A DNA stretch of 64,000 nucleotides from an uncultured Verrucomicrobiae bacterium (GTDB lineage Bacteria; Verrucomicrobiota; Verrucomicrobiia; Chthoniobacterales; JAFAMB01): positions 66,715 to 130,714 of the forward strand of contig CAWEGF010000023.1 of the NCBI GenBank assembly GCA_963808535.1. Direction: 5' to 3'. Each line of letters begins with the position of its first letter. The stretch's first letter is position 1. The notes beneath the pieces were generated by a model. It saw only the letters and a program-made list of their open reading frames with translations, made no database searches and had not been told where the DNA came from. The position numbers were made by a program, and so were the translations under genes. Shown in pieces: positions 1 to 56,545 of this stretch.

Positions 1-427
1 CCTCTATTAACCCCTCACCAAAAACCGGGTCATATCTGGAGGCTTCAACCGCCGGAGGAGCCTCCTGTGAACGAACGGGAGCTGGAACTACCAATACGGG
101 CCCTTCAACCGGTTCGTTCATTTCGGGTCTTTTCTGTTCACTCGACGGCTCGGCGGCCTGCACGGATCCGTGTGGTTGCGATAAAGGACGTTCGGGTGCA
201 TTTTCAACTTTCTGATCAGGAGTGCCATCCGGGCTCTCCATTAACGTTAAATGGTTATTGGTGTCGGAACCGATTGGTTCGTCCTTGGTTTGCTTCTTAA
301 CTCTTCCCGCCCCCGTTTTACTTGCGGTAGTCCTTCGCGGACGCGCAGCGGTTTTCGTTCGTCGAGGTTTTTTTACGTCGTCCACGTCTTGATTGAGCAA
401 AGCGGGTTGTTCGTTTGCTTCTGCCAT
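1..427 (-). CDS. partial CDS (5' part, runs off the left edge): protein with Lys/Arg/Pro/Glu-rich low-complexity N-terminus; possibly Rho with an N-terminal extension
   Basis: Not in the ORF track because there is no stop in the window. ATG at 427-425 (minus) is preceded by GGAAG and the frame stays open to position 1: MAEANEQPALLNQDVDDVKKPRRTKTAARPRRTTASKTG...RYDPVFGEGLIE. The final GEGLIE resembles the segment before the Rho RNA-binding domain, but the diagnostic domains lie outside the window. Confidence 0.35.
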   Translation of the reverse strand, partial: MAEANEQPALLNQDVDDVKKPRRTKTAARPRRTTASKTGAGRVKKQTKDEPIGSDTNNHLTLMESPDGTPDQKVENAPERPLSQPHGSVQAAEPSSEQKRPEMNEPVEGPVLVVPAPVRSQEAPPAVEASRYDPVFGEGLIE

Positions 428-464
428 AACTTCCATTTCAGAATAAAATTTTAGATCCGCACGG

Positions 465-1217
465 TTAGCTGGAAAGCCTTGCTAGTAACTCGTCGGAAAT
501 ATCAAAATTGCTGTGAACGCTTTGGACATCGTCATTATCCTCGAGGGCATCGCATAGTCTGAGCACTTGCGAAGCTAACTCGTCGTTAACGACGGCGACC
601 GTGGTGTTCGGAACAAAGGTTAGCTTTTGAGATTCAAAATGGATTCCGGCATTCTTCATCGCCTCTCCGACCTGGTACAAATGATCGTGAGGGGTGGTAA
701 CAATGTACAAATCCTCGTCCGTGATTAAATCTTCTGCTCCGGCTTCCAGAGCGATCTCCAATACTTTATCTTCTTCCACTGTGCCTCTGCCGACGGTGAT
801 CTGACCTTTTCGCCGGAACATGTAAGAAACAGCTCCGGAGGCGGCTAGATTGCCGTGATTCTTGGCAAAGGTACTTCGGATATCCGCCGCGGTGCGGTTC
901 TTATTATCGGTCGCCGCCTCCACAATAATGGCGACGCCTCCCGGACCGTATCCCTCGTACATCAACTCTTCAACAATCCCTCCGGCAATTTCCCCAGTCC
1001 CTTTCTTGATCGCCCTCTCAATCGTGTCATTCGGCATGTTCTGAGCGCGAGCGGCCAGGACAGCGGTCCGAAGGCGGGGGTTTAAATTCAGGTCCCCGCC
1101 TCCCATCCGGGCCGCAACCATAATTTCCTTCGAGAACCTACTGAATATTTTCCCACGCTTCGCATCTAATGCACCCTTAAAGCGCTTGACTTTCGACCAT
1201 TTACTATGACCCGCCAT
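465..1217 (-). CDS. yebC: YebC/PmpR family DNA-binding transcriptional regulator
   Basis: 250-aa ORF. The N-terminus MAGHSKWSKVKRFKG... and its length are hallmarks of the YebC/PmpR (TACO1) family. Confidence 0.9.
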   Translation of the reverse strand: MAGHSKWSKVKRFKGALDAKRGKIFSRFSKEIMVAARMGGGDLNLNPRLRTAVLAARAQNMPNDTIERAIKKGTGEIAGGIVEELMYEGYGPGGVAIIVEAATDNKNRTAADIRSTFAKNHGNLAASGAVSYMFRRKGQITVGRGTVEEDKVLEIALEAGAEDLITDEDLYIVTTPHDHLYQVGEAMKNAGIHFESQKLTFVPNTTVAVVNDELASQVLRLCDALEDNDDVQSVHSNFDISDELLARLSS

Positions 1218-1371
1218 ACTTCGGGTGAAACAAAATCATTCAGAAAAGGGTTAAAGTTTTACCAGCGACGCACTTGAGAGCGATGAGCAAGACAGAAGAA
1301 TTCGAAGAGAGAACCGCTGATTAGCGCATCAACAAGCGATAGCCAGAGCAAACTGCAAATAGACTGATTTG

Positions 1372-3183
1372 TCAACTTACTTTGCTGGAGGCCCGCTTTC
1401 GGGCATTGGAATCCAGAATCTTTTTGCGCAATCGGAGTGTCTTCGGCGTCGCTTCCACGTATTCATCCGACCCGATATATTCGAGCACTCGCTCGAGGGT
1501 CATTCGCAACGGTGGGGCTAATTGGACACCTTTCCCGTCACCCTGGCTTCGCATGTTGGTGAGATGCTTTGTCTTGCACGCATTGACCGTCAAATCATCG
1601 GGACGCGAATTTTCTCCGACAATCATTCCTTCGTAGACGTCCTCCTGCGGGCCGATGAAAAGTTTGCCTCGTTCTTGGACGTTATTCAAAGCGTAGGCCG
1701 TTGAAATTCCGCTTTCCATCGCGACCAGGACACCATTGTCGCGATTCGAGATTTCCCCCTTCAAAGGACCATATTCCTTAAAAAGGTGACTCATGGAACC
1801 AAGTCCTCTCGTGAGATTGACTAAATCGCTTTCAAAACCAATTAATCCGCGAGTCGGGATGACCGCCTCCACTAATACCGTGGTGGTTTGATGGTCCATG
1901 GCGACGATTTCTGCCTTGCGGCCGGCGAGCGATTGCAGAATATCTCCGAGATTTTCGTTCGGCACGTCGGCATACAGGGTCTCGAATGGCTCTAACGTGT
2001 TCCCCAAGTTGTCCTTCTGAAAGATAACTTCGGGTCGAGAAACCAGCAGTTCGAATCCTTCACGGCGCATTTGTTCGACGAGAATCGCGATCTGCATTTC
2101 GCCCCGCGCGCTGAGGGTAAAAATGCCGGCCGTGTCCGTTTCGATAAATTGCAACGAAACGTTGGTGCGGCATTCGCGAACCAAACGTTCCTTGATATGC
2201 CGGGCGGTCAGCAGCTTGCCTTCGCGACCAGCCAATGGCGAGTCGTTGACCAAGAAATTCATCTGGATCGTCGGAGGATCGATGTCGACAAATTCGAGAG
2301 CCGTCCTCTCTTCGAGGTCAGTCAACGTGTCGCCAATGGAAAGCTCCTCAAAGCCGGCCAGCCCAATAATGTCACCCGCCCCGGCGTGCTTGACCTCAAT
2401 GCGATCTAAGCCCTGATGGCCAAATAGAGCCGTCACGGTGTCGCGTTCGCGCCGCCCATCGTTGTGAATGCAGACAATCGAATCACCAACTTTTACCCGC
2501 CCGCTGACGATGCGACCAAAAGCCAACCGGCCAAGATAATCCGAATAATCGAGATTAGAGACCAGCATCCGAAAATAAGCTTCCGATGGTTTGGGCGGAG
2601 GCGGGATGTGCTTCACGATGGCTTCGAATAACGGATCCATCGAGGTATTTGGCTCATGGATCTCCCGCATGGCGTAACCCTCCTTCGCACTCGCGTAGAT
2701 GACCGGAAAGTCCAATTGAGCATCGGTGGCGTTGAGTTCAACGAAGAGGTCGAAGACCATGTCCAGCACCTTGTGGGGTCGGGCATTTTCGCGGTCTATT
2801 TTATTGATAACGACAATCGGCTGGGCCTGGTTCTCCAAGGCCTTGCGTAAGACAAACTTGGTCTGCGCCTGGGGTCCGTCGTGGGAGTCGACCACCAGCA
2901 GCACACCATCCACCATCTTCATAATCCGTTCGACTTCCCCGCCGAAATCTGCATGGCCGGGCGTATCCACGATGTTGATGTGGTACTCCTTGTATTTGAA
3001 AGCGGCGTTCTTCGCCTTGATGGTGATCCCTTTTTCCTTTTCCAGGTCCATCGAATCCATGACCCGCTCTTCAACCTTTTGATTGGCCCTGAAGGTCCCG
3101 GACTGACGAAGCAGCTGGTCCACGAGGGTGGTTTTTCCATGGTCAACATGGGCGATAATTGCAATATTACGTATACGTTCCAT
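1372..3183 (-). CDS. typA: translational GTPase TypA/BipA
   Basis: ORF 1372..3276 with G1 motif IRNIAIIAHVDHGKTTLVDQLL, DTPGHADFGGEV and NKIDR. Start trimmed to the ATG at 3183 (MERIRNIAII), giving the usual ~600 aa. The upstream in-frame Met at 3276 is also possible. Confidence 0.9.
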   Translation of the reverse strand: MERIRNIAIIAHVDHGKTTLVDQLLRQSGTFRANQKVEERVMDSMDLEKEKGITIKAKNAAFKYKEYHINIVDTPGHADFGGEVERIMKMVDGVLLVVDSHDGPQAQTKFVLRKALENQAQPIVVINKIDRENARPHKVLDMVFDLFVELNATDAQLDFPVIYASAKEGYAMREIHEPNTSMDPLFEAIVKHIPPPPKPSEAYFRMLVSNLDYSDYLGRLAFGRIVSGRVKVGDSIVCIHNDGRRERDTVTALFGHQGLDRIEVKHAGAGDIIGLAGFEELSIGDTLTDLEERTALEFVDIDPPTIQMNFLVNDSPLAGREGKLLTARHIKERLVRECRTNVSLQFIETDTAGIFTLSARGEMQIAILVEQMRREGFELLVSRPEVIFQKDNLGNTLEPFETLYADVPNENLGDILQSLAGRKAEIVAMDHQTTTVLVEAVIPTRGLIGFESDLVNLTRGLGSMSHLFKEYGPLKGEISNRDNGVLVAMESGISTAYALNNVQERGKLFIGPQEDVYEGMIVGENSRPDDLTVNACKTKHLTNMRSQGDGKGVQLAPPLRMTLERVLEYIGSDEYVEATPKTLRLRKKILDSNARKRASSKVS

Positions 3184-3449
3184 AGAAACCGATGGAGAAT
3201 CGGAAAGATGGCTGCGCCCAACCGGCTCGTCAATGAGGTTTACGTTCAAAACATCGTTAACCAAAGGGCGTTTCACCCGGATCGCAACAAACGTTTTTCG
3301 AACGCGATCATGGGAGCCCTTGCCAAAAGAGGTTTCGGTAGGGCATCTGCGTCGAAAACGCCGGAGTGAACCGAGTTTTCAATGGCAAGAATTCGCCTGA
3401 AATAGAAACTAAGACGGACAGCTAAAAGTTAAAAGAGCAATGCGGAGAA

Positions 3450-4334
3450 CTACTTACAGCGGGAGAAACGGCTTGAATCATCTGTATAAAGCGCGGCTTT
3501 TGGCACCCCATAATCGGAGCCGATATTGATCCCGATCGTCTTGCCTAGATTGATCGGTCCGGCTTGACGATGGGTGTGTCCACACACAACCGCAGCCAGA
3601 TTGGTTGGTGTCTCTCTCAATAGTTTTCCCATCGAGTGGTTCCCTAAATAGGCGCGGAAAAAAGCATAGATTGACGGCTCCGAACCCGGCGGCAAAACGC
3701 GTAGAGGAGGCACCCCAAGGAGTTCTTCAAAAGGGGAGGTATGCAACACGGCGATGGTCCGAGCATCGCCGGCTTCCGACAAGTGCTTTCGAACTGCTTC
3801 GACCTGTTCATACGCCACTTCCCGCGGATGCCGCTCGTTTGGCATGAATTGGAAATCACGCCATCGCATCGCGGAATTCACCGCTGGACTTCCCCGGAGG
3901 TATTCCTCCTCCGTGACCAGAGTTCCGTCGAAAGCGAGATTAGGAACGGCGAAACCGAGATCGTAATGGCCGTAACCTCCGACGATTGTGATTTCCTGGA
4001 GCTCCAGATTTTCCAAATCCAGAAGAACAACATCGAAGATTTTTGCAGCGGGCGCCCAATGGCGAGAGATAATCGAGGAAAGCGAGTCGCCCACTCTTCG
4101 AGAATGATCCAGCATCCAGAAGTCATGGTTGCCAAGACAAACGGCGATCGGGCCCATTGGGAAACAGTCCCGCAAACTTTTCAATGTTTCCTCGGCTTGC
4201 TGCGCGCTCGAGAGATCGCCCGCCACGACGAACGCATCCGGCCGGTACCTGGTGATCCATTCTCGAACCTTCAGCAACGTCGGTTCCTGCGTTGCCCGCG
4301 AAAGGTGCAGGTCTGCGGTGAAGAGTATTTTCAC
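3450..4334 (-). CDS. metallophosphoesterase family protein
   Basis: 294-aa ORF with calcineurin-like phosphoesterase motifs (DLHLS, GDL, GNHDFW, GHTH). Confidence 0.7.
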   Translation of the reverse strand: MKILFTADLHLSRATQEPTLLKVREWITRYRPDAFVVAGDLSSAQQAEETLKSLRDCFPMGPIAVCLGNHDFWMLDHSRRVGDSLSSIISRHWAPAAKIFDVVLLDLENLELQEITIVGGYGHYDLGFAVPNLAFDGTLVTEEEYLRGSPAVNSAMRWRDFQFMPNERHPREVAYEQVEAVRKHLSEAGDARTIAVLHTSPFEELLGVPPLRVLPPGSEPSIYAFFRAYLGNHSMGKLLRETPTNLAAVVCGHTHRQAGPINLGKTIGINIGSDYGVPKAALYTDDSSRFSRCK

Positions 4335-4354
4335 GGTAGGCGATCGAAGCAGGC

Positions 4355-4939
4355 TCAGCTCCGAAGAAATTCCAGAAAGTGCGCCAGCGCTCTTCCGCGA
4401 TGGCTAAGGCTGTTTTTGATCTCGGATTGGAGCTCTCCAAACGTCTCCGTGTAACCCTGCGGAATAAAAAGAGAGTCATAGCCAAATCCGCTTTCCCCAC
4501 GTTCTTCGAGGGCCACCTTTCCCCTGACCACCCCCCCGAAGGACCCAAGCAATTCACCTTGGCTGGCCAGAACCATGACACAACGAAAACGTGCCGGGAA
4601 CTCGTGTCCGCCGAGATTTCTCAGCTTTTGGACGAGCAGAAAACGATTTTCCGCGTCAGTGGCGTTCGGTCCGGCAAAACGAGCGGAGCGGACGCCAGGA
4701 GCTCCCTCCAAAGCATCTACCTCAAGGCCGGAATCGTCCGCCAGGACTAAGCCAGTAAAGATTTTGGAAATGGTGATCGCCTTTAGCGCTGCGTTCTCTT
4801 CGAACGTCGCCCCAGTCTCCTCAATGTTCGGCGCGTGCGGCAGCGAGCCCAAATCGCGGACGTCCCAGCCAGAACCCAGTATTTGTCCAATTTCCCGTGT
4901 CTTATGCCCGTTCCGGGTGGCGATTAAAAGTGTTTGCAT
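4355..4939 (-). CDS. rdgB: RdgB/HAM1 family non-canonical purine NTP pyrophosphatase
   Basis: 194-aa ORF: LLIATRNGHKTREI..., FGYDSLF, SHRGRA, typical of RdgB/HAM1. Confidence 0.85.
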   Translation of the reverse strand: MQTLLIATRNGHKTREIGQILGSGWDVRDLGSLPHAPNIEETGATFEENAALKAITISKIFTGLVLADDSGLEVDALEGAPGVRSARFAGPNATDAENRFLLVQKLRNLGGHEFPARFRCVMVLASQGELLGSFGGVVRGKVALEERGESGFGYDSLFIPQGYTETFGELQSEIKNSLSHRGRALAHFLEFLRS

Positions 4940-5042
4940 CGTACGGTGTCCACCTCAAGGTTGCCTCCTCCAAAGAGGTTACCGGAAGACGAACAGCACC
5001 TCGAACAGGCAACCCAAATTGGATTTGCACTAGATAATACCA

Positions 5043-7650
5043 ATGAGCGAGCGACGAAAACAGTTTCCCTTTCGGGAATTCGAACCGAAATGGCAGCAAC
5101 ATTGGCTGGCCAGCAAAGCGTTTGAGGCGCCAAATCCGAATCAACCGGGATTTGATTCCTCGAAACCGAAGTTCTACGTGCTCGACATGTTCCCATATCC
5201 GAGCGGTGAAGGTCTTCACGTCGGCCATTTGGAAGGGTACACCGCGACCGATATCGTCGCTCGATACAAGAGGATGAAAGGTTTCAACGTCCTCCATCCA
5301 ATGGGATGGGATGCCTTCGGATTGCCGGCCGAACAGTTCGCGATCAAAACAGGACTTCATCCATCCATTGCGACAGCTAAGAACATCAGTCGGTTCAAAA
5401 GCCAGCTCAGAAAAATCGGCTTTAGTTATGATTGGGCCCGCGAGGTAAACACGACCGACCCTGACTATTACCGTTGGACCCAATGGATATTTCTGAAGCT
5501 TTACAATTCCTGGTTTGACCGCGAAAAGAAGGCCGCACGGCCGATTGAAGAGCTCATCGCGGCGAGACAGCACGATTTCCCGGATGAATCGGAGAATAAA
5601 TGCCGGGAATTCGTGGATGGCAGTCGTCTTGCCTACGTCACGGAAGCGCCGGTGAACTGGTGCCAGGAACTGGGAACCGTTCTGGCCAACGAAGAAGTTG
5701 TTGACGGCAAAAGTGAAGTGGGCGGATTTCCAGTCGTCCGGCGTCCGATGCGCCAATGGATGTTGCGAATCACCTCCTATGCCGATCGATTACTAGAGGA
5801 ACTTGAGCCGCTGGATTGGCCGGAGTCGATTAAAATTCTGCAGCGCAATTGGATCGGCCGGAGTGAAGGAGCCCAAGCGACATTCCGGATCGACGGTTCA
5901 ACCGAAGGAATCACGGTTTTCACCACCCGCCCGGACACGCTTTTTGGCGCTACTTATGTGGTTTTGGCACCTGAACATCCCTTGGTCGATCTGGTGACAA
6001 CTCCAACCCAGCAAGCTGCCGTGGCAGATTACAAAGCAAGGGTTTCAGCAAAATCCGATCTCGAACGTACGGATCTGTCGAAGGAGAAGACTGGCATTTT
6101 TACCGGCGGATTCGCCATCAACCCGGTCAACCAGGAAAAGGTTCCGATCTGGATCGCCGATTACGTTCTGGTCAGCTACGGAACCGGCGCCATCATGGCG
6201 GTTCCGGGTCACGACGAGCGGGACTACGATTTCGCCCGCAAATTCGGGCTCGAGATTCGTGAGGTTGTCGAGCCACCGGTTCTAACTGAATCCTGTTTTA
6301 CGGGAGACGGTGTCGCCAAGAACTCCGGTTTCCTGGATGGATTAGCGACCGGAGAAGCGAAGCGTAAAATCATCGATTGGCTGGAGAAGGAGGGGTCCGG
6401 AAAGCGCTCCATTACTTACAAGCTCCGGGACTGGTTGTTTTCGCGCCAACGCTACTGGGGTGAGCCGTTCCCGATCATTTGGCGTAATGGCAGGCATGAA
6501 GCGCTACCGGAATCGGACCTTCCGATCGTACCACCTCCGCTCGAAGATTATCGCCCCACCGGAACGGTCGAACCTCCCCTAGCGAAGGCTAAAGCCTGGA
6601 TCACTCTTTCCGATGGAGCGACCCGGGAACTGAATACGATGCCGCAGTGGGCCGGGTCTTGTTGGTACTTTTTGCGGTTCGTTTCGCCAAACGATGCGAA
6701 TCGGTTTGTGGACGAAACGGCCGAACGTTACTGGATGTCTGGAAACGACGCCCGACAACCGCCGCCGCGGAGGAGTCGATCTTTACGTCGGCGGAACCGA
6801 GCACGCGGTGCTTCATCTCTTGTACTCGCGATTCTGGCACAAAGTGCTCTACGATCTTAGTTATGTTTCAACCGTGGAACCTTTCCAGCGACTGGTGAAC
6901 CAAGGAATGATTCTCGGACAGGATCACCAGAAGATGTCCAAGAGCCGCGGCGATGTCGTATCGCCGGATGAGATCGTCGACGAATATGGAGCGGATGCTT
7001 TGAGGCTCTACGAGATGTTTCTTGGTCCCCTTGAAGCCACCAAACCGTGGAGCACCAGCGGGGTTGAAGGGGTTTATCGCTTCCTGGCCAGGGTGTGGCG
7101 TCTGGTCATGGATGAAGATCAAGAAGGGCAGTGGCAGCTATCCTCGGGCTTGGGAAGTATCGATCTCAGTTCCAGGCAGCAAAAGGTTGTGCATTCCACC
7201 ATCAAGAAAGTCTCCGAGGATCTGGAATCTCTTTCTTTTAACACCGCAATCGCCCAAATGATGATCTTTGTTAACGAATTCACCGGTGCGGAGAGTCGGC
7301 CGGTCGAAGCCGTTCGGATTTTATTGACCCTGTTGAGTCCTTTTGCCCCGCATCTGGCGGAAGAACTCTGGTCGCACCTGGGCAGTAAGTTTGCCGGATT
7401 TGAGGGCATGGCATGCCAGCAATCCTGGCCGGTGTGGCGCGATGAATTTCTCGCCCAGGAGGAAGTTGAGATCGTCATCCAAATCAACGGGAAATTGCGA
7501 GATAAGGTGACGGTCAAAAAGGACTCAGGAAAAGCGGAACTTGAGCAAGTCGCGCTGGCCTCTTTGAGAGTGCAGGAAGCCGCTCGTGATAAAGTTATCC
7601 GCAAAATCATCGTGGTGCCGAACAAGGTGGTAAACGTGGTGATTAATTGA
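5043..7650 (+). CDS. leuS: leucine--tRNA ligase, reading frame broken near 6751-6753 in this assembly
   Basis: ORFs 5043..6860 and 6694..7650 together make a complete class-I LeuRS ([24 protein letters not shown]). The frame changes at the CCC run 6751-6753 (..[10 protein letters not shown] / [31 protein letters not shown]..). Confidence 0.9.
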
Positions 7651-11507: not shown

Positions 11508-13725
11508 ATGCAGAATTACGCGCGAGTCATCACCGATGACCCCACGGATAAAGAACTGGATTACTCAATTCCTCAAACGTGGGCCGGTAAAGTTCACATC
11601 GGCTCCCGGGTTAAAGTTCCGCTTCGTTCACGTGAAATATTAGCAACGGTTGTGGCCCTCGTCGACACGCCGTCGGTGCCCGAACCAAAAACTATATCGG
11701 CTCTGATTTCGGAGAGTCCAATTCTAAATAAATCGTTGTTGGCGTTGGCGCGTTGGATGGCGGAATACTATTGCTGTCCTGTGGAATCGGCGATCCGATC
11801 CCTTTTGCCCGAAGTAATCAGGAAGGCAAAACTCGGTTTTAAGCGCGAACGGATCATTTCAGTCAGCCGCGAGTTCTCCCAGGAAGAACTCCAAGCTCTC
11901 GAGGCAAAAGCCCCTCGCCAGGCCCAAGTCCTGAGATATGTGATTGAGCTGGCCGAAGTTATTCGCTGGAGAGAACTGCAAGAGCGGGCGGCGACTACGG
12001 ATCGGACGATTCAACAACTGGTCGATCGCGGCTTCCTGCAGGTCAAATTCGAAAATACAGACCGTGACCCGTACGCGAACGAGCACTTCGTCTCCAGCGT
12101 CGCGATCCAACTAAACACCGAGCAAAAGAATGCGCTGGAGATGGTCGTTCAGGCAGTGGACGCCCGAGACAACCGCCCGATCTTGCTTCATGGAGTGACC
12201 GGGAGTGGCAAAACAGAGGTTTACCTCCAGGCTATCGATCGTTGTCTGAAGCAGGATCTCGGCGCTCTGGTGCTGGTTCCGGAGATTTCCTTAACCCCGC
12301 AAACAGTTGAACGTTTCAAGATGCGCTTCCAAGCGGACCTGATCGCCGTGCTTCATAGTCACCTTTCGGCCGGCGAGCGGCACGACGAATGGCACAAACT
12401 CAACAGCGGCAGAGCGCGCGTTGCCATTGGTGCTCGTAGCGCTGTTTTTGCGCCGGTTCGAAGGCTTGGGTTGATCGTGGTCGACGAAGAGCACGAAACC
12501 TCCTACAAACAGGAGGAAGCGCCGCGTTATCAAGCCCGGGACCTGGCGGTTGTTCGGGCCCAAATCGATCGCTGCGCCATTCTACTTGGCAGCGCGACCC
12601 CCTCGTTGGAGAGCTATCAGAATGCCAAGACCGGAAAATACCGCCTGGCAAATTTGAGCTGCCGAGTTGACGATCGGGAACTCCCTTTGATTCGCGTGGT
12701 CGACATGCGACAGGAGTACCTCAAGCAGAAACACGTCCCTTTGATCTCCGGCCGCCTGGCGAGCGCGATCGAAGCTCGCTTGGTCGGCCAAGGAACAGAC
12801 AATTTTGTTCCTTAACCGGCGGGGGTTCGCCACCTCCCTGGTTTGTAATCAGTGCGGCTTCGTCTGCGACTGCCCGAATTGCAGCGTCGCCCTGACCTTC
12901 CATCAGGGAGAGAACCGGCTGAAATGTCATTTATGCGGCCATGCGACGGTCGCACCACGAAAATGCCCGAAATGTGCCGACCCTTCGATCCGCTATGCCG
13001 GGTATGGAACCGAGAAAATCGAGGGTACGGTGCGCAAACTTTTTCCGGCCGCCGCCGTCGCGAGAATGGATGCGGATTCAATGTCGCGAAAAGACGCCTA
13101 TCGCCAGACCTTACAAGCCTTTCGAACGGGCAAAATCGACATTTTAGTAGGGACGCAAATGATCGCCAAGGGACTGGATGTTCCGAACGTCACCTTGGTT
13201 GGTATCATCAACGCCGATGTCGGCTTGCATATGCCCGATTTCCGGGCTGGGGAAAGGACCTTTCAGCTTTTGACTCAGGTCGCCGGACGGGCCGGCAGAG
13301 GCGACATGGCCGGAGAAGTTTTTGTCCAGAGCTCGACCCCTTTCAGTCCGTCCATCCAGTTTGCTCGTCACCACAATTTCGAGGGATTCTGGGAACAGGA
13401 GATTGAGTTCCGGGAGCGGTGTGAATACCCCCCTTTTCTTCATCTGCTCATGATTCACATCCGCTCCGAACATCAGCGACTGGCGGAATTTACTGCTGAA
13501 ACCATTCACCGGAGGCTCAGTGAAAAACCAGATCCAGGTGTTACTCTGCATCCGGTGGTACCGGCGCCAATCGAACGATCAAAAGGCTTCTACCGTTACC
13601 AGATTCTCCTGCGGTCCAAAGCGATTCGCCGTCTCAGCGGCACCGTCCGTTCGATTCTCCAAAAACTGACCTTCCCGGAAGAAGTGCATGTCTCAGTTGA
13701 CGTGGATCCTTACCAGGTTCTGTAA
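11508..13725 (+). CDS. priA: primosomal protein N' (replication restart helicase PriA), frame broken near 12783-12790
   Basis: ORFs 11508..12815 and 12805..13725 together give a full PriA (GVTGSGKTEVY, VVDEEHE, Cys-rich CNQCGFVCDCPNCSVALTFH..CHLCGH). Junction is ..IEARL / AKEQTILFLNRRGFA... Confidence 0.9.
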
Positions 13726-15596: not shown

Positions 15597-16929
15597 AGAG
15601 CTTCAACCGAGCCAGAATGACGACATCGCGAACGGCGGTGTCAAATGGTTTACCTTTCTTTTCGACCAGCGGTTTGGCCAGGAAAAATGTGACGATTCCT
15701 AGCAGGGAAAGCAGAATAAAATAAATACTGAATCGATTGACCTGGAACAAGCCGATCGAAAACTCGTTTCTGCCCAAAATATCCAGGAAAACACCCCAGA
15801 AAATCGGCGCCAACCCAAGACTCAGGGAGGCGAATACAGTAAACAGCGAGAAGAAGTGATTCCGCCCCATCACCGGCATGGTGTCCATGGCGATGCGAGT
15901 GTTGGCGATCGAAAAGAGGCCGCCGGCGACACCGAGAATGAGATAGTTGGAGGCGACGAAAAAATAGTGGGCGGGCACTAACCCGCTCGTAACCACGACC
16001 CAGAAAAGGATCCCGACAAGATAAAGGGACATGGCTAGCTTCAGGAGAGGTTTGCTCCCGGTACGTTCCAGTATGAGACCGAAGAATGGAACGCTCCCAA
16101 AGGCTCCAACCGAAGCCGCCAGATTGACGGCCAAAACTTGTCCGGCGGTGTAACCCGCTCTTCCTTCAAGGAAAGCGATGACAAAAGCAGCTAGTCCCCC
16201 GACCACCCAGTTGTACACCACATTGAAGATCAACAACTTCGTAAAAGGAGGATATTTGAGTATTTCCAACCAAGGAACCGGTTGCCCGGAGGACTTGGAT
16301 TGTTCTCCGATCTCGAGATCTGGAATTTTGCGCACGAAATGGAGGCTCAACATCCCAGCCAGCATACTGATGACAAAGAGGAGAGAAAATTGCCAAGGTT
16401 TACCTCCCGACCAGAGAACCAGGGTCGAGACAGCGATGGCGATCATCCCTCCGCATTGCATATGGAGCTGGTCAGAACGAAGAAAAGCGGCGCGGGCATT
16501 CGCCGGCACCAGGCCTGTTAGCCAAGGAAGCCAGGCACCCGTCGAGATACCGCGCACGACGTTGAAGAGAAAAAGACAGGTGAGCATTAACTCCACCTGC
16601 ACTGCGGTGGAAAGAAAAACCAGCAAGGGTAAGATCGCCAGAATAAACAACAAGACGGCCCGAACTGACCATCCGAACAACACAAATCCTTTATAACCAA
16701 CTTTGGGAATGAAATAAGCCGTCGGAAGCTGAAGAACAGTCATGAGCGGCGCGAGGGAAGCGACAATACCGATCGTGGTCGCGCTGCCTCCCAATGATTT
16801 TGCGTACAAGATCATCGGTGCGCCCAGAGTGACCTGGAAATTCACGGCGTTGAACAAACTGAAGCGAAAAGAATTCGTCGCTTGTGGAGGAACCTCCTCA
16901 AGCGTTGAAGTTGCCTGGGGGTTGGTCAT
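15574..16929 (-). CDS. MFS transporter
   Basis: 451-aa ORF that is hydrophobic throughout with about 12 helix-length segments. Overlaps lolC/E by 23 nt. Confidence 0.7.
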   Translation of the reverse strand: MTNPQATSTLEEVPPQATNSFRFSLFNAVNFQVTLGAPMILYAKSLGGSATTIGIVASLAPLMTVLQLPTAYFIPKVGYKGFVLFGWSVRAVLLFILAILPLLVFLSTAVQVELMLTCLFLFNVVRGISTGAWLPWLTGLVPANARAAFLRSDQLHMQCGGMIAIAVSTLVLWSGGKPWQFSLLFVISMLAGMLSLHFVRKIPDLEIGEQSKSSGQPVPWLEILKYPPFTKLLIFNVVYNWVVGGLAAFVIAFLEGRAGYTAGQVLAVNLAASVGAFGSVPFFGLILERTGSKPLLKLAMSLYLVGILFWVVVTSGLVPAHYFFVASNYLILGVAGGLFSIANTRIAMDTMPVMGRNHFFSLFTVFASLSLGLAPIFWGVFLDILGRNEFSIGLFQVNRFSIYFILLSLLGIVTFFLAKPLVEKKGKPFDTAVRDVVILARLKLYGRFFNR

Positions 16930-18376
16930 TCCTGCGGTTTCGATTTCAGATGCGGAAACAAGATGACCTGCCGGATGGATTCCGCACCTGTGAGAGCCAT
17001 CACCAATCGATCGATCCCGATCCCAATCCCACCTGCTGGCGGCATCCCATGTTCCAGCGCGAGGAGAAAATCCTCATCGAGATCCTGAATTTCCGCGCCC
17101 ACCTGTTCTGTGAACCTCTGGCGCTGAACCAAGGGATCGTTCAGCTCAGAATACCCCGGAGATATCTCCTGGCCATTGATGATCAGCTCGTAAACGTCAA
17201 CCAGTGCCGGGTTCTCGGCATTTTGCTTTGCTAACGGCACAAGTTCGACCGGCAAGTGGGTGACAAAAAGAGGGTTGATGGTCCGTTCTTCCACCAGTTT
17301 CTCGAACACTTGCTGGGTTATCTCAAAGTCCTGCATCCCGGAATGCACTTCCACTCCGAGTTCCTGTCCACGCAAGAGCTTCTGCTCATGGTTACGCTCA
17401 TACCAAGTATGGTCCACCCCCCGAATCAGGTCTTCGTAACGGGCCCTTTTCCAGGGTCGGGAAAGATCGATTGTCGCTTGGTGTTTCCCTCGCTATCCTG
17501 GTGCGTGATCAGCAGTGACCCAGCGATCCGTTCAGCCAAATCGCAGATCATCTCCTCGACCAGGTTGGCCATCACCTCAAAATCAGCGTAGGCCCAATAA
17601 ACCTCCAGCATGGTAAACTCTGGATTGTGCCGACGGGAGATCCCTTCGTTCCGAAAGTTGCGATTGAGTTCAAATACCTTCGTAAATCCGCCGACCAACA
17701 ACCGCTTTAAATAGAGCTCCGGAGCTATTCGCAAAAAGAGATCCATGTCCAACGCCTTGTGATGGGTTTTGAACGGCTGAGCTGCCGCCCCACCCGCCAC
17801 CGGCTGCATCATTGGAGTCTCGACCTCAACGAAACCTCGATCATGCAAGTATTGCCGGATCTCGCGGATAATCCGGCTCCTGGTGAGGAAAACATCGCGC
17901 GCGGCCGGATTGGCGATCAGGTCAAGGTAGCGTTGCCGATTGCGGATCTCGATGTCACTGATCCCGTGCCACTTGTCGGGCAGTGGGCGTAACGTCTTAG
18001 ACAGAATTTGAAATTTCTCGACCCGAATTGTCGGTTCGCCGGTCTTGGTAACAAAGCCCTCTCCTTCGACTCCAAGAAAATCGCCAAGATCCAGCAACTG
18101 AAAAATTCCGGCCTCTTCCGGCGGCAACTCCTTCAGATTAATGTAAACTTGAAGCCGGCCACTGACATCGCTGAGATCAAGGAACTGGCTCTTTCCCATA
18201 TTGCGATGGGCCGTTATTCGACCCGCCACGCGCACTCGTTGGCCTTCCGCAAACGCCTGACGGACCTCTCCCACAGATCCGGAGACATCGAATCGACCTC
18301 CGAACGGGTCAACCTTCTGTTCAAGCAATTGCTGCAGCTTCTGCCGACGGAACGCAAGAAGATCGTTTTCTTCCAT
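16926..18376 (-). CDS. lysS: lysine--tRNA ligase (class II), frame broken within 17430-17490
   Basis: ORF 17426..18376 carries the OB fold and [31 protein letters not shown] 16926..17417 carries motif 3, [14 protein letters not shown]. Junction is ..EGNTKRQ / [25 protein letters not shown]... Confidence 0.9.
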
Positions 18377-39587: not shown

Positions 39588-39660
39588 CTGTCATAAATCG
39601 CCTCGAATCGATTCGGTCAAAGGGATCTTGGGTTAGCCTCCCTATATGGACCGAGGGCCT

Positions 39661-39945
39661 GCCCCGCAGGGGCTACAGAATTCAGCCCCGGGTTTCAACC
39701 CTGGGAACCCTCAAAAATAAACGGTTCGCCCTCATAAGGACCAGAGGTGCGGGTACCAGATGAAGCTCGCACCTATCGCCGCGCAAAAGTCAGGGTGTAA
39801 TTGGGACGTGTTACAATTGGACCATCGGACCCCGCTTTCGCCTTGTTCGGACGTCCGATCTGGCGCCCCCTTCAGGGCGCGTCGCTCTTGGTGGACGATT
39901 CCCAGCGTTGAAACCCTGGGCTGAGCGCTGTAGCCCCTTCGGGGC
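39661..39945 (+). repeat. family A structured element, copy A1 (285 bp)
   Basis: Bounded by GCCCCGCAGGGGCTACAGAAYTCAGCCCNGGGTTTCAACCCTGGGAA and its inverted complement. The internal core is shared with the other copies. The right flank carries a family C arm ending GCGCCATT at 40021-40028. Confidence 0.9.
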
Positions 39946-40085
39946 ACAAAAGAAAGGCCTCAGCCCGAGGATTGCGGCCTACAGCCTTTTCGGAGCAAAA
40001 TCCTCCCATGCCTTACCTTCGCGCCATTTTTGTCTGACCTCATTCCTTCGTACTGGTTTAGGGTCTATATATGGACCGAGTGCCT

Positions 40086-40349
40086 ACCCCGCAGGGGCTA
40101 CAGAACTCAGCCCAGGGTTTCAACCCTGGGAACCCTCAAATAAACGGTTCGCCCCGACGAAGGGGCGAGAGATGTGGGTACCAGATGAAGCTCACATCTT
40201 TTGCTGCGCAAAAGTCAGGGTGCAAAATTGGGACGTGTTACAATTGGAGCATCGGACCCCGCTTCGCCTTGTTAGGACGTCCGATCTTGGCGCCCCCTTC
40301 AGGGCGCGTCGCTCTTGGTGGACGATTCCCATGGTTGAAACCCTAGGCT
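40086..40349 (+). repeat. family A element, copy A2, 5' part (interrupted by family C insertion at 40350)
   Basis: The same termini and core as A1, but the right terminus stops at ..TTGAAACCCTAGGCT. It resumes at 40772 (see the next features). Confidence 0.9.
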
Positions 40350-40771
40350 GAATGGCGCGAAGATAAGGAGAATTTGGGATGGGCTCTATAGATAAAACCA
40401 AGAACCTGCCCCGCAGGGGCTACAGAACTCAGCCCAGGGTTTTAACCCTGGGAATCCTCAAAATAAACGGTTCGCCCTGAAGGGGCGAGAGATGCGGGTA
40501 CCCGATTAAGGTCGCACCTATTGCCGCGCAAAAGCCAGAGTGCGCAACTGTGCGACAATTGGACCATCGAACCCCACTTCCCCCCTTGTTAGGACGTTCG
40601 ATCTGGCGCCCCTTCAGGGCGCATCGCTCTTGGTGAACGATTCCCAGGGTTGAAACCCTGGGCTGAGTTCTGTAGCCCCTGCGGGGCATAAAACGAAGAC
40701 CTCAGCCCTAGGATTGTGGCCTACAGACCTTTCGGAACAAAATCATTCTATTCCTTAACTTAGCGCCATTC
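40350..40771 (+). mobile_element. family C non-autonomous element, insertion C1 (422 bp), carrying family A copy A3
   Basis: Termini are GAATGGCGCGAAGATAAGGAG... and ...CCTTAACTTAGCGCCATTC (imperfect inverted repeats). It is flanked by a perfect 11-bp direct repeat AACCCTAGGCT (40339-40349 and 40772-40782). Removing the element plus one repeat restores an intact family A terminus. Confidence 0.85.
40408..40687 (+). repeat. family A element, copy A3 (280 bp), inside insertion C1
   Basis: Full termini and core. The loop of the internal AGATGCG/CGCACCT hairpin has diverged while the stem is kept. Confidence 0.9.
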
Positions 40772-40805
40772 AACCCTAGGCTGAGTTCTGTAGCCCCTGC
40801 GGGGC
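40772..40805 (+). repeat. family A element, copy A2, 3' end (continuation of 40086-40349)
   Basis: AACCCTAGGCTGAGTTCTGTAGCCCCTGCGGGGC is the right-terminus remainder, beginning with the duplicated 11-mer. Confidence 0.85.
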
Positions 40806-40946
40806 ATAAAACAAAGGCCTCAGCCCGAGGATTGCGGCCTACAGCCCTTTCGTCGGAGCAAAATCATCCCAAGCCTTATCTTCGCCAATCTGGTCTGACC
40901 CCATTCCTTCGTACTGGGTTAGCCTCTCTATATGGACCGAGGGCCT

Positions 40947-40980
40947 GCCCCGCAGGGGCTTCAGAATTCAGCCCAGGGTT
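40947..40980 (+). repeat. family A element, copy A4, 5' end (interrupted by family C insertion at 40981)
   Basis: GCCCCGCAGGGGCTTCAGAATTCAGCCCAGGGTT is the left terminus, cut after AGCCCAGGGTT. Confidence 0.85.
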
Positions 40981-41422
40981 GAATGGCGCTAAGTTAAGGG
41001 TAGTTTGAGATGTTTTTGCCCTGAAGAATCTTGCTCACGCCCTCCCTAGAAGCCGTTGGAACCGTCTGCAAGCCCGTCCCGGAGGGACAGACCGATCGTA
41101 GCCTGGCACGAAGTGCCTGGGAGAGCACCACTCCAAAAGAACCGTCCCGTAGGGTACGGTATGATCGGGCGCAGCTAATGACGTTCTCGATCGATTCGTG
41201 CTTACACCTGAAAGAATCACACCGTACCCTACGGGACGGATCTTTTGGGGTGGTACTCTCCCAGGCACTTCGTGCCAGGCTACGATCGCATCGTCCCTCC
41301 GGGACTTTTCAAACTTTCAAACAAGCTTTAGCTAGGGAAGAGAACTTGAAATTTGAGCGGGATTTTGCAGAGAAGCCAGGGCAAAATAAATCGCCTACGT
41401 CCTCCTTATCTTCGCGCCATTC
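40981..41422 (+). mobile_element. family C non-autonomous element, insertion C2 (442 bp), carrying family B copy 2
   Basis: Termini are GAATGGCGCTAAGTTAAGGG... and ...CCTCCTTATCTTCGCGCCATTC. It is flanked by a perfect 11-bp direct repeat AGCCCAGGGTT (40970-40980 and 41423-41433). Removing it restores an intact family A left terminus. Confidence 0.85.
41076..41305. repeat. family B hairpin-chain element, copy 2 (230 bp), nested in C2
   Basis: The same inverted termini as 10395-10640 (GTCCCGGAGGGAC..GCCTGGCACGAAGTGCCTGG..GTCCCGTAGGGTACGG). The central part is only partly similar. Confidence 0.85.
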
Positions 41423-41680
41423 AGCCCAGGGTTTCAACCCTGGGAACCTTCAAAATCAACGGTTCGCCCTGAAAGGGCGAGAGATCCGGGTATTAGATGA
41501 AGCTCGCACCTATCGCCGCGCAAAAGTCAGGGTGCGCAATTGGCGTGTTACAATTGGACCATCGGACACCGCTTCCGCTTGTTAGGACGTTCGATCTGGC
41601 GCCCCTTCAGGGCGCGTCGCTCTTGTTGGACGATTCCCAGGGTTGAAACCCTGGGCTGAGTTCTGTAGCCCCTCCGGGGC
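41423..41680 (+). repeat. family A element, copy A4, 3' part
   Basis: Starts with the duplicated AGCCCAGGGTT, then the core and right terminus. It shares diagnostic variants (..CTTCAAAATCAACGG.., GATCCGGGTATTAGATG) with copy A5. Confidence 0.9.
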
Positions 41681-41813
41681 ACCAAACAAACGCCTCAACC
41701 CAAGGATTGTGGCCTATAAGTTTTCGGAGCACAATCCTCCCAAGCCTTATCTTCGCCAATCTGGTCTGACCCCATTCCTTCGTACTGGGTCTCTCTATAT
41801 GGACCGAGGGCCT

Positions 41814-42108
41814 GCCCCGCAGGGGCTTCAGAATTCAGCCCAGGGTTGAGCCCAGGGTTTCAACCCTGGGAACCTTCAAAATCAACGGTTCGCCCTGAAA
41901 GGGCGAGAGATCCGGGTATTAGATGAAGCTCGCACCTATCGCCGCGCAAAAGTCACGGTGCGCAATTGGCGTGTTACAATTGGACCATCGGACACCGCTT
42001 CCGTCTGGTTAGGACGATCGATCTGACACCCCCTTCAGGGCGCGTCGCTCTTGTTGGACGATTCCCAGGGTTGAAACCCTGGGCTGAGTTCTGTAGCCCC
42101 TCCGGGGC
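41814..42108 (+). repeat. family A element, copy A5 (295 bp) with 12-nt footprint-like duplication
   Basis: Full termini and core. It contains AGCCCAGGGTT-G-AGCCCAGGGTT at 41837-41859, exactly at the position where C2 sits in the sister copy A4. Confidence 0.9.
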
Positions 42109-42511
42109 ACCAAACAAACGCCTCAACCCAAGGATTGCCGAGTGCAGCTTCTCGCTACAGACAATTCCAACTCCGTTGGAATTTTAAGTTACTGCCTTCG
42201 GCGATCAAGGCCGTCCATAGCGCAGTCTGCTGGAGGATTAGCAAGCTGACTCTCCTGACCTGCGCTGGATCTTTCGTTCCATTTACCACCACCGATCAAC
42301 GCGTTATGAAAAAGCCTGAAACTTTAGGAATCAGATCTCGTTGTAACCAACTGACAGCAAAAACCACAGCCGCCTCGGCGGCATCCCTCAAGACCGATAT
42401 AAACTTAGCAACCCAATAATACAGATGAAAATTGTAACCAACATTCTAAAAACATACGGTAATAACACCGCTGCCCTCACTACTCCGACGTTTGCAACTT
42501 TTTCGAATAAC

Positions 42512-45071: not shown

Positions 45072-45836
45072 TCAAGACAGACCAGAGGTTTTCTGGCCGC
45101 CATTGCGGTGTTGCTGAAGTTTTATGTCGAAAGTAAGCGTAGTGATCCGTCGATGACGAGATCGCCCCAATTCCTCCAGGGAGATCTTCAAATCGGTTTT
45201 TTTATTTATTTCCGCAATCGCCGTATCCAAAGCCCTTTGACGTAAGTTCGCCCAAACAGGTAAAGGTGCTTCCTGGATGATGTTTCCTGCCTGATCCCTG
45301 ATCGACTCCAGCCCCAGCACCTTTCGCAGTCGGTCCAAGGAAACCCGCTTGCTGCCAACCGCAGCATATTTTTTGGCCCAATTGTAAAGCCGGAGCGAAT
45401 ATTGACTGCGGAGCCGAAGCTTGGCTGATTTTTCGCTAAGATAGGTAGGCAGAAGCTTTTTCAACTCCAACCAAATATTCTCAAAGCGCGGACTGAACGT
45501 TAAAAAAACTTCCGGATTTTCGATTCCGCGCACCTGCACAGCTTCCAGCCATCGGGTATAACTAGTAATGATTTGGGAATCTTTGATTTCTTCGATCACC
45601 AGGCGATAGTTAGCGGCCAACCGCAAAGCCGGTTTGAGGACCTTCTGGCCTCCAACGGAAATAGGCTCGGTCTGTCCTGGTCGATATTTTGCAAGAGCAA
45701 AATTCAAGAGGTGGCGTTCCGGTTCGGTGAGCATGAAATAACTTTTCTGCACACCAATTGGCAGGGATTCCTCGAGCCCCTTATCGATGATGCTGTTGGG
45801 CAGCCGAGCTTGAATTGATGTTTTTGCTGTCGCCAT
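45072..45836 (-). CDS. plasmid-type replication initiator protein (Rep_3 / RepA-RepB-like)
   Basis: 254-aa ORF: MLTEPERHLLNFALAK, SQYSLRLYNWAKKYAAVGSKRVSLDRLRKVLGLE, and QRALDTAIAEINKKTDLKISLEE..GRR.ITTLTFDI. This matches the two winged-helix pattern of Rep_3 initiators as I remember it. Confidence 0.7.
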   Translation of the reverse strand: MATAKTSIQARLPNSIIDKGLEESLPIGVQKSYFMLTEPERHLLNFALAKYRPGQTEPISVGGQKVLKPALRLAANYRLVIEEIKDSQIITSYTRWLEAVQVRGIENPEVFLTFSPRFENIWLELKKLLPTYLSEKSAKLRLRSQYSLRLYNWAKKYAAVGSKRVSLDRLRKVLGLESIRDQAGNIIQEAPLPVWANLRQRALDTAIAEINKKTDLKISLEELGRSRHRRITTLTFDIKLQQHRNGGQKTSGLS

Positions 45837-55444: not shown

Positions 55445-55520
55445 GGTACTTTTTTGAATAAGACGCTGCATTCCCGCTGAGTTGCGAAAAAGGATCATGC
55501 GCCTGAGGCCTTTGTTTTGT

Positions 55521-55802
55521 GCCCCGCAGGGGCTACAGAACTCAGCCCAGGGTTTTAACCCTGGGAATCGTCCACCAAGAGCGACGCGCCCTGAAGGGGC
55601 GCCAGATCGAACGTCCTAACCAGGTGGAAGCGGTCGGATGGTTCAATTGTCGCACGTCCCAAGTGCGCACCCTGACTTTTGCGCGGCAAAAGGTGCGAGC
55701 TTCATCTGGTACCCGCATCTCTCGCCCCTTCAGGGCGAACCGTTTATTATAAGAGTTCCCAGGGTTGAAACCCTGGGCTGAGTTCTGTAGCCCCTGCGGG
55801 GC
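55521..55802 (-). repeat. family A element, copy A6 (282 bp), inverted relative to A1-A5
   Basis: The same termini. The internal core is the reverse complement of the 39.6-42.1 kb copies. Confidence 0.9.
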
Positions 55803-56020
55803 AAGCCTCGGTCCATAGATAGAGCGTAACCCAGGGTTGAAGATACCACGATGGGGACAGATCCAAGTTGCAGTTGGGGAATCTTCGAAATGGGACAGAC
55901 CCCTGTGAGGGCGCTCAGATTGGGGACAGACCCGAATGGCGCGAGGTAAGGTTTAGGATGATTTTGCTCCGAAGGAAGGGGCTGTCGGCCACAATCCTCG
56001 GGTTGAGGCCTTTGTTTTGT

Positions 56021-56306
56021 GCCCCGCAGGGGCTACAGAACTCAGCCCAAGGGTTTTAACCCTGGGAATCGTCCACCAAGAGCGACGCGCCCTGAAGGGG
56101 TCGCCAGATTCGGAACGCGTCCTTACCGAGGTGGAAGCGGTCGGATGGTTCAATTGTCGCACGTCCCGATTGCACACTCTGACTTTTGCGCGGCAAGAGG
56201 TGCGAGCTTCATCTGGTACCCGCATCTCTCGCCCTTTCGGCGAACCGTTTATTTTGAGGTTCCCAGTATTGAAACCCTAGGCTGAGTTCTGTAGCCCCTG
56301 CGGGGC
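56021..56306 (-). repeat. family A element, copy A7 (286 bp), inverted relative to A1-A5
   Basis: Same as A6. It is preceded by an inverted family C arm with terminus GAATGGCGCGAGGTAAGG at about 55935-55952. Confidence 0.9.
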
Positions 56307-56545
56307 AAGCCCTCGTGTCCTTAGATAGAGCCTAACCCAGGAGATCGATGTCATTGTCCCGGCCGACGATCCCAAGGCGGAGCGGTTTTAGACTCGACCC
56401 GCAGCCGAGTCGACGATCGAAGACTTAAGGGCAGCTTGCAAAATAGAAGCGAAATTCTACCTGCAAAGACGCGGCAACGCGCAGATCGAGTTCCATTCGA
56501 ATCTGCGCGCCGCTTCCACCCCGAGTCGGTAACAGTTTCTAAAAG

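Follow-up and report, generated by a model that had tools for sequence, protein, structure and literature searches.

The window, by which we mean the whole 64-kb stretch of DNA analysed, contains seven copies (14 termini) of a repeat of approximately 285 bp, denoted family A, whose terminal inverted repeat (TGCCCCGCAGGGGCTACAGAACTCAGCCCAGGGTTTCAACCCTGGGAA) is 46 nt long and consists of two hairpins. Four composite units (U1, U2, U4 and U5) form a tandem array that is bordered by a small lipoprotein ORF, itself downstream of leuA, and by an ORF at 42425; each unit is a family A copy, followed by ~95 nt that finish with a half end of the family C type, and then by a 24-nt linker. Elements of the second family, C, interrupt the array (Table 1). 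The two families are nested both ways, with C-type half ends in the array units and a family A copy inside element C1. Outside the array, the left hairpin of copy A7 (56036-56068) reads AGCCCAAGGGTT, with one extra A in an A run; the extra base, probably the result of a homopolymer error or point indel, is unconnected to the 12-nt insert in copy A5 that is described below. Between A6 and A7, just upstream of the family C-type end at 55934, the sequence GGGGACAGAYCC is found at 55853-55864 and at 55922-55933, with a looser third occurrence near 55893, giving a spacing of ~35 nt.

Three genes of the window appear as two ORFs each: leuS (5043-7650), priA (11508-13725) and the gene of a class II aminoacyl-tRNA synthetase, probably lysS (16926-18376). 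The break in priA falls at a G5 run near 12822 and that in lysS at a C7 run (17417-17424), a pattern that indicates indels introduced by long-read assembly and not pseudogenes. Because of these homopolymer errors, single-base indels in the window are unreliable. A Rep3-type replication initiator gene, 45072-45836(-), lies in a chromosomal context within a low-GC patch at 44-46 kb (48.5 % GC, compared with ~53 % elsewhere); the gene is syntenic in the relatives L016 and L018, and its setting suggests an old, integrated plasmid-like remnant.

Table 1. Positions of the family A and family C features within the window.
Feature	Position	Strand	Remarks
Tandem array U1, U2, U4, U5	39597..42130	+	four composite units, period ~425 bp; interrupted by C1 and C2
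Family C element C1	40350..40771	opposite to C2	422 bp; in right terminal repeat of A2
Family A copy A4, left fragment	40946..40980	+	ends in left copy of the target duplication, 40970-40980
Family C element C2	40981..41422	+	442 bp, no credible ORF; in left terminal repeat of A4
Family A copy A4, right fragment	41423..41681	+	starts with right copy of the target duplication, 41423-41433; RF01687 match 41636-41681
Family A copy A5	41813..42109	+	left terminal repeat 41813-41872 including the insert; right terminal repeat 42062-42109
Candidate excision scar	41837..41859	+	hairpin 1, left terminal repeat of A5; AGCCCAGGGTT-G-AGCCCAGGGTT
Family A copy A6	55520..55803	-	both hairpins intact; reference for the unmodified state
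Family A copy A7	56020..56307	-	adjoins family C-type end 55934-55952
RF01687 termini	40407-40452(-), 40643-40688(+), 41636-41681(+), 42064-42109(+), 55520-55565(-), 55758-55803(+)		by Rfam score

The termini of family A belong to a described motif. Six of them, including the right end of A5, match the covariance model of the Acido-Lenti-1 RNA (RF01687) with scores of 39.2-42.7 bits, above the gathering threshold of 37. The Acido-Lenti-1 seed alignment features many close copies with covarying stems in Lentisphaera, an acidobacterium (NC_008009), Rhodopirellula and soil DNA (Weinberg et al. 2010, PMC2864571).

Two family C elements are found in the window, both inserted in family A termini. 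The site of C2 (40970-41433) has the structure AGCCCAGGGTT/GAATGGCGCT...GCGCCATTC/AGCCCAGGGTT, and the ends of the element read GAATGGCGCTAAGTTAAGG and, inward as the reverse complement, GAATGGCGCGAAGATAAGG. The core of C2 holds a 90-nt inverted repeat (41076-41165 and 41216-41305) that is 91 % complementary around a 50-nt spacer and may be another nested palindromic element; an ORF that overlaps C2 (41031-41585) has no match in Pfam. Element C1 carries the family A copy A3 at 40407-40688 and is flanked by AACCCTAGGCT at 40339-40349 and 40772-40782, the complement of the C2 target. Since both of these flanks bear the CCTAGG variant that is specific to A2, they represent a true target duplication. 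C1 and C2 resemble each other at their ends only (GAATGGCGCGAAGATAAGGAG and GAATGGCGCTAAGTTAAGG), and neither contains a credible ORF. A single large element spanning 40350-41422 was considered and rejected, as its flanks are inverted, whereas separate C1 and C2 parses give perfect direct repeats of 11 bp.

A third insertion is present in a metagenomic contig (L011, 2578-2661), where a family-A-type hairpin contains an internally deleted remnant of 62 bp at 2589-2650. The junctions read ...TTCCCAGGGTTGAAACCCTGGGCT/GAATCC...(62 bp)...CTTCGCGCCATTC/AACCCTGGGCT..., with AACCCTGGGCT on both sides; one end of the remnant is intact and the other is reduced to GAAT(C). Both the sample and the repeat copy differ from those of the window. 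The target duplication is 11 bp long at C1, at C2 and at the L011 remnant, and three independent insertions at one 11-mer establish a strong target specificity of family C. The target takes in the 3' arm of hairpin 1 together with the conserved CU of the motif (CT in DNA). It reads as a near-palindrome around the A of CCC-A-GGG, and such a target, centred on one base, is as expected for a dimeric transposase with an odd-length stagger.

The ends of family C, with the consensus GAATGGCGC(G/T)AAG(A/T)TAAGG, point to a known group of insertion sequences. In the RefSeq record of E. coli K-12, the ends of IS4 are TAATGCCGATCAGTTAAGG and TAATGCCAGTCAGTTAAGC, and the K-12 copy has a 12-bp target duplication. 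Alignment of the C end GAATGGCGCTAAGTTAAGG with the IS4 end TAATGCCGATCAGTTAAGG gives 14 identical bases in the 19 terminal positions, in register. Members of the IS4 subgroup share the end signature -AATR--------WTW----, in which the first base is only loosely conserved, and have direct repeats of 10-13 bp, with a striking target specificity in some members (De Palmenaer et al. 2008, PMC2266710). Both GAATGGCGCGAAGATAAGG and GAATGGCGCTAAGTTAAGG conform to this signature, in that AATG occupies positions 2-5 and positions 14-16 are ATA or TTA, and the 11-bp duplication of family C lies inside the range of the subgroup. On the grounds of the end signature, the 14/19 match and the length of the duplication, family C is best described as a putative miniature derivative, lacking a transposase, of an insertion sequence of the IS4 subgroup. 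A second parse of the C ends, TGAATGG...CCATTCA with a duplication of 9 bp (GCCCAGGGT), would turn the site in A5 that is described next into TSD-TGA-TSD; comparison with the ends of IS4 favours the parse with 11 bp. An autonomous partner of family C would have the same ends and encode a DDE transposase with the YREK motif; a Pfam search of approximately 50 ORFs of the window found no transposase, and no Ku or LigD. In a collection of viral sequences the hairpin pattern had no matches and the family C end pattern had four, none with an inverted partner; these four are treated as chance matches.

Within A5, positions 41837-41859 read AGCCCAGGGTT-G-AGCCCAGGGTT, i.e. an 11-mer at 41837-41847, a G at 41848 and the same 11-mer at 41849-41859, at exactly the point where C2 is inserted in A4, as stated in the original prediction. 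With one mismatch allowed, AGCCCAGGGTT occurs 18 times in the window, compared with 0.9 expected, and an adjacent pair of occurrences is found window-wide solely at this site. A two-sided anchor pattern for the site (CAGAANTCAGCC-gap-TTNAACCCTGGGAA) recovers 10 of the 14 family A termini in the window; of the other four, two are interrupted by family C and two are too diverged to match. Eight of the anchored termini span the usual 32 nt, one is longer by 1 nt (56036-56068), and 12 extra nucleotides are seen only at 41829-41872. In the alignment of the units this appears as a 12-column insertion private to U5. The remaining 13 family A termini of the window do not have the insert, in agreement with the claim that the double 11-mer is private to A5, and 12 related metagenomic termini lack it as well. 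The structure of this duplication is far above what chance would give and represents a derived state of A5.

The arrangement of the insert is 11+1+11, which makes it an imperfect tandem repeat; a perfect 12-nt tandem would need a T or a C in place of the G. The repeat unit starts with AG and the downstream sequence with TC, so there is no flanking microhomology. Replication slippage would be recognized by a perfect tandem repeat with microhomology, and neither is found here. Simple slippage is a poor fit because of the imperfect repeat and the lack of flanking microhomology, and it was rejected.

The units that contain A4 and A5 are closely related. In a MAFFT alignment of seven units the cores of U4 and U5 are 98.2 % identical, with every other pair at 92.1 % or less, and the two are mutual nearest neighbours in all 500 of 500 bootstraps. 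The three variants quoted earlier as common to A4 and A5 are all present in the aligned U4 and U5. The proposal that A5 is the closest relative of A4 is upheld by both measures, and no bootstrap placed another unit nearer, an outcome that would have spoken against it. It was further argued that A4 and A5 represent one duplicated unit in its filled and in its emptied state. This does not follow, because a hop from A5 to A4 after duplication of the unit fits the data equally.

Similar termini were sought outside the window. The hairpin pattern recovered 13 loci from metagenomes, 12 of them real, and two of these 12 termini, which belong to unrelated elements from different soil samples, also carry duplications of 11 nt. 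At L005 (797-839) the duplication is perfect, GGTTTCAACCC-GGTTTCAACCC, and lies in the same hairpin, centred on its loop; at L008 (85-127) GGTTTCAACCC is likewise duplicated, with a substitution at the junction base. The register of both corresponds to hairpin positions 6-16, while that of A5 corresponds to positions -1 to 9, and no insertion at the L005/L008 register was seen. The hairpin has a 2-nt loop, for which a replication bulge-out predicts even lengths (10 or 12), and the duplications of L005 and L008 have the odd length of 11. These two loci cut both ways: their odd length and the irregular junction of L008 fit a scar-forming process, but the existence of 11-nt hairpin duplications with no demonstrated transposon weakens the link to family C. 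The original prediction had allowed that such duplications, if common in copies unrelated to any insertion, would count against it; this speaks against it in part, as 2 of the 12 related metagenomic termini, L005 and L008, do carry them, at the other register, and none of the 12 carries one at the register of A5.

A collection of genomes gave no matches (0) for termini with 1-31 extra bases, and a broad pattern recovered one partial relative, in a Verrucomicrobiae MAG (L001). Look-ups of exact copies of three window proteins, LeuA, the 241-aa neighbour and SucD, gave no record. LeuA places the DNA in the Chthoniobacterales (Verrucomicrobiota). The closest relatives of the LeuA protein are 88-94 % identical (L016-L027, L032 and L033) and come from loci in which the recG-recJ-leuA order is kept. 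The family A/C array is absent from these syntenic leuA loci, which consequently cannot show a filled or an ancestral state. A filled A5 allele was not found in the genome and metagenome collections scanned.

The best single reading of the insert in A5, and one in which we have moderate confidence, is that it is the scar of a family C insertion, followed by cut-and-paste excision and end-joining. From the sequence we infer that a C element was once present in A5, that its removal was catalysed by a transposase and that the break was sealed by an end-joining activity. The element would have been located at 41847/41848. A transposase supplied in trans would have made staggered cuts, 11 bp apart and centred on the CCC-A-GGG half of hairpin 1, causing the duplication of AGCCCAGGGTT. 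Later, transposase would have released the element at its exact ends, leaving blunt flanking DNA as do Tn5 and Tn10, and the flanks, with one copy of the duplication each, would have been rejoined without a template, a G being added or retained in the process. The excised element may be C2 itself, now 870 bp upstream at the same target in A4, which the reading does not require. Tn5 and Tn10, the studied enzymes of the IS4 family, perform cut-and-paste transposition via hairpins on the transposon ends and give blunt flanks.

Several observations bear on the excision reading. The 11-mer duplicated in A5 and its register are exactly those of C1 (as the complement), C2 and the L011 remnant; a random duplication of 11-12 nt in the 46-nt terminal repeat would match the C register with a chance of about 1/36. 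The duplicated sequence is, as in a footprint, the target duplication of the element at a site that the element is seen to use. The irregular base sits exactly at the junction, where end-joining would place one, and the 11+G+11 structure has the few untemplated or element-derived junction bases of a footprint, although a template switch predicts the G too. The extra G is not diagnostic: it could be the first base of family C, the base given by a template switch onto the other hairpin arm, or an untemplated addition, and blunt-end chemistry of the IS4 type alone does not predict the retention of a transposon base. The footprint rests on a single site. Of the case originally made for an excision footprint, the sister relationship, the uniqueness of the site and the match to the C target all stand, and the IS4-like ends agree with it; what tempers it is that excision is deduced from one site, that L005 and L008 exist, and that the G is ambiguous. 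Two other origins were considered and rejected. P-nucleotides from hairpinned flanks would give A or T, not G, and recombination between the flanking duplications would leave one copy or duplicate C. Literature searches on footprints of bacterial MITEs and on NHEJ in Verrucomicrobia yielded nothing specific.

The insert could also have arisen without any excision by a transposase. In one such scheme, which we regard as unlikely, the hairpin itself made the duplication with no involvement of family C, by a double template switch or by staggered nicking of the extruded hairpin and fill-in. DNA folding shows that CCCAGGGTTGA, which is formed with the insert, pairs perfectly with TCAACCCTGGG in an 11-bp stem; the GA at the junction makes the first copy fully complementary to TCAACCCTGGG, as in quasi-palindrome template switching, and L005 and L008, from different metagenomes, show that the hairpin can carry 11-nt duplications of GGTTTCAACCC where no transposon is known. 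However, a return to the template after the GA would need re-annealing on only three of the four last bases, and for this reason the template-switch route is rated lower. The scheme also offers no reason why the register in A5 should be the 11-mer of three independent C insertions. Nor does it account for the lengths and junctions: all three duplications are of odd length (11) where a bulge-out predicts 10 or 12, and two of the three are irregular exactly at the junction.

Alternatively, a C element may have been present in A5 and have been lost without transposase, by replication slippage across a snap-back of its inverted ends that left one base behind. The terminal repeats of C and their near-palindromic flanks do fold into one continuous stem (z = -7.7), and the 62-bp remnant in L011, with one breakpoint 4-5 nt from an end, shows that C elements do undergo internal deletions. 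The two junctions offer an imperfect microhomology, TTGA vs TTCA, in which the usable part is a single perfect base, and slippage between perfect 11-bp repeats should have restored a single copy of the target; we consider this route improbable. An artefact of assembly or polishing, at a site that is heterogeneous (filled and empty) in the sampled population or among near-identical tandem units, is highly improbable. Homopolymer indel errors do occur in this assembly, and the site lies inside a tandem array of 98 % identical units; but the errors observed are single-base homopolymer indels, and a clean 12-nt insert that copies an 11-mer is of another type. Similar 11-nt duplications are moreover present in L005 and L008, which are independent contigs of short-read metagenomes.

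A broader proposal, which we put forward only tentatively and regard as somewhat doubtful, is that IS4-type miniature transposons of soil Verrucomicrobiota, and probably of neighbouring phyla, repeatedly enter and leave Acido-Lenti-1 hairpins, and that each round leaves an 11-bp end-joined scar; A5, L005 and L008 would then be records of repaired transposase breaks. To our knowledge, template-free closure after excision is routine in eukaryotes and has seldom been recorded in bacteria. If the scar in A5 is real, a bacterial cut-and-paste element was excised from a donor chromosome that outlived the event and whose break was resealed with no template. A duplication of the length of the target duplication, with an irregular junction at a known target, would in that case be a genomic signature, which could be used to gauge the frequency of excision in uncultured soil bacteria.

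Cut-and-paste DNA transposons of eukaryotes are well documented to leave excision footprints, and such footprints have been reported for some archaeal insertion sequences. The site in A5 is like these in that both copies of the target duplication are kept with few bases at the junction (here TSD-G-TSD); it differs in its bacterial host and in that the footprint would be deduced from one site. In bacteria, the donor break is usually repaired from the sister chromosome, or the donor is lost. The Ku/LigD end-joining system of mycobacteria often adds single nucleotides at blunt ends. A similar activity, acting on the blunt flanks of an IS4-type excision, would yield TSD-TSD or TSD-N-TSD. Ku/LigD end-joining is encoded by ~22 % of bacteria (PMC7719229).

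The precise and nearly precise excision of Tn10 and Tn5 resembles the A5 case in that an element is lost from a site flanked by a duplication and has inverted ends that can snap back. No transposase takes part in these events, in which the inverted ends promote slippage from one direct repeat to the other. After precise excision a single copy of the duplication remains, and the nearly precise form keeps a remnant that has internal repeats at its borders; in A5, in contrast, both copies are kept with one base between them.

Family C shares with IS4 and its subgroup the end signature, 14 of 19 terminal bases, a duplication within 10-13 bp and the strong target specificity of some members. It differs in being without a transposase, in its small size (422-442 bp, and 62 bp in L011), in its Chthoniobacterales host and in its REP-like hairpin target, and no autonomous partner of it was seen in the window. 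In the choice of target, the closest likeness is to IS1397 and ISKpn1, insertion sequences that target the palindromic units of enterobacteria: family C has likewise entered a repeated extragenic hairpin at one and the same position, in three independent events, although it belongs to another insertion sequence family, targets another hairpin family and is found in another phylum.

Contig L011 and the partial relative L001 provide further views of such hairpins. In L011 (5.5 kb), an IS110-family transposase gene is found at 220-1671(-) and a Y1 gene at 2035-2484(-), and an insertion sequence bounded by inverted CTGCAGTTTGGACATTT, with DDE_5 and DruA-like genes, occupies 2680-5104; the CTGCAGTTTGGACATTT terminus also lies directly beside a hairpin element of L001 (7252-7268). 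Acido-Lenti-1-like hairpin repeats appear to receive insertions of several transposon types.

With its inverted pair of two-hairpin motifs and its tandem clusters, family A is reminiscent of the REPINs of the REPIN/RAYT system (Bertels and Rainey 2011, PMC3116915), although the ~190 bp between its two motifs exceed the spacers of described REPINs. The 64-kb window has no Y1 transposase gene; in L011, the Y1_Tnp gene (IS200-like, E = 2.7e-19) lies ~80 nt from an Acido-Lenti-1-like hairpin, on one side only. Rfam files RF01687 as a candidate small RNA, while in the window the motif is the end of a repeated DNA element, serving as a terminal inverted repeat and as a preferred landing site for at least one transposon family. 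This bears on the annotation of the motif, and the point holds independently of how the scar in A5 is read.
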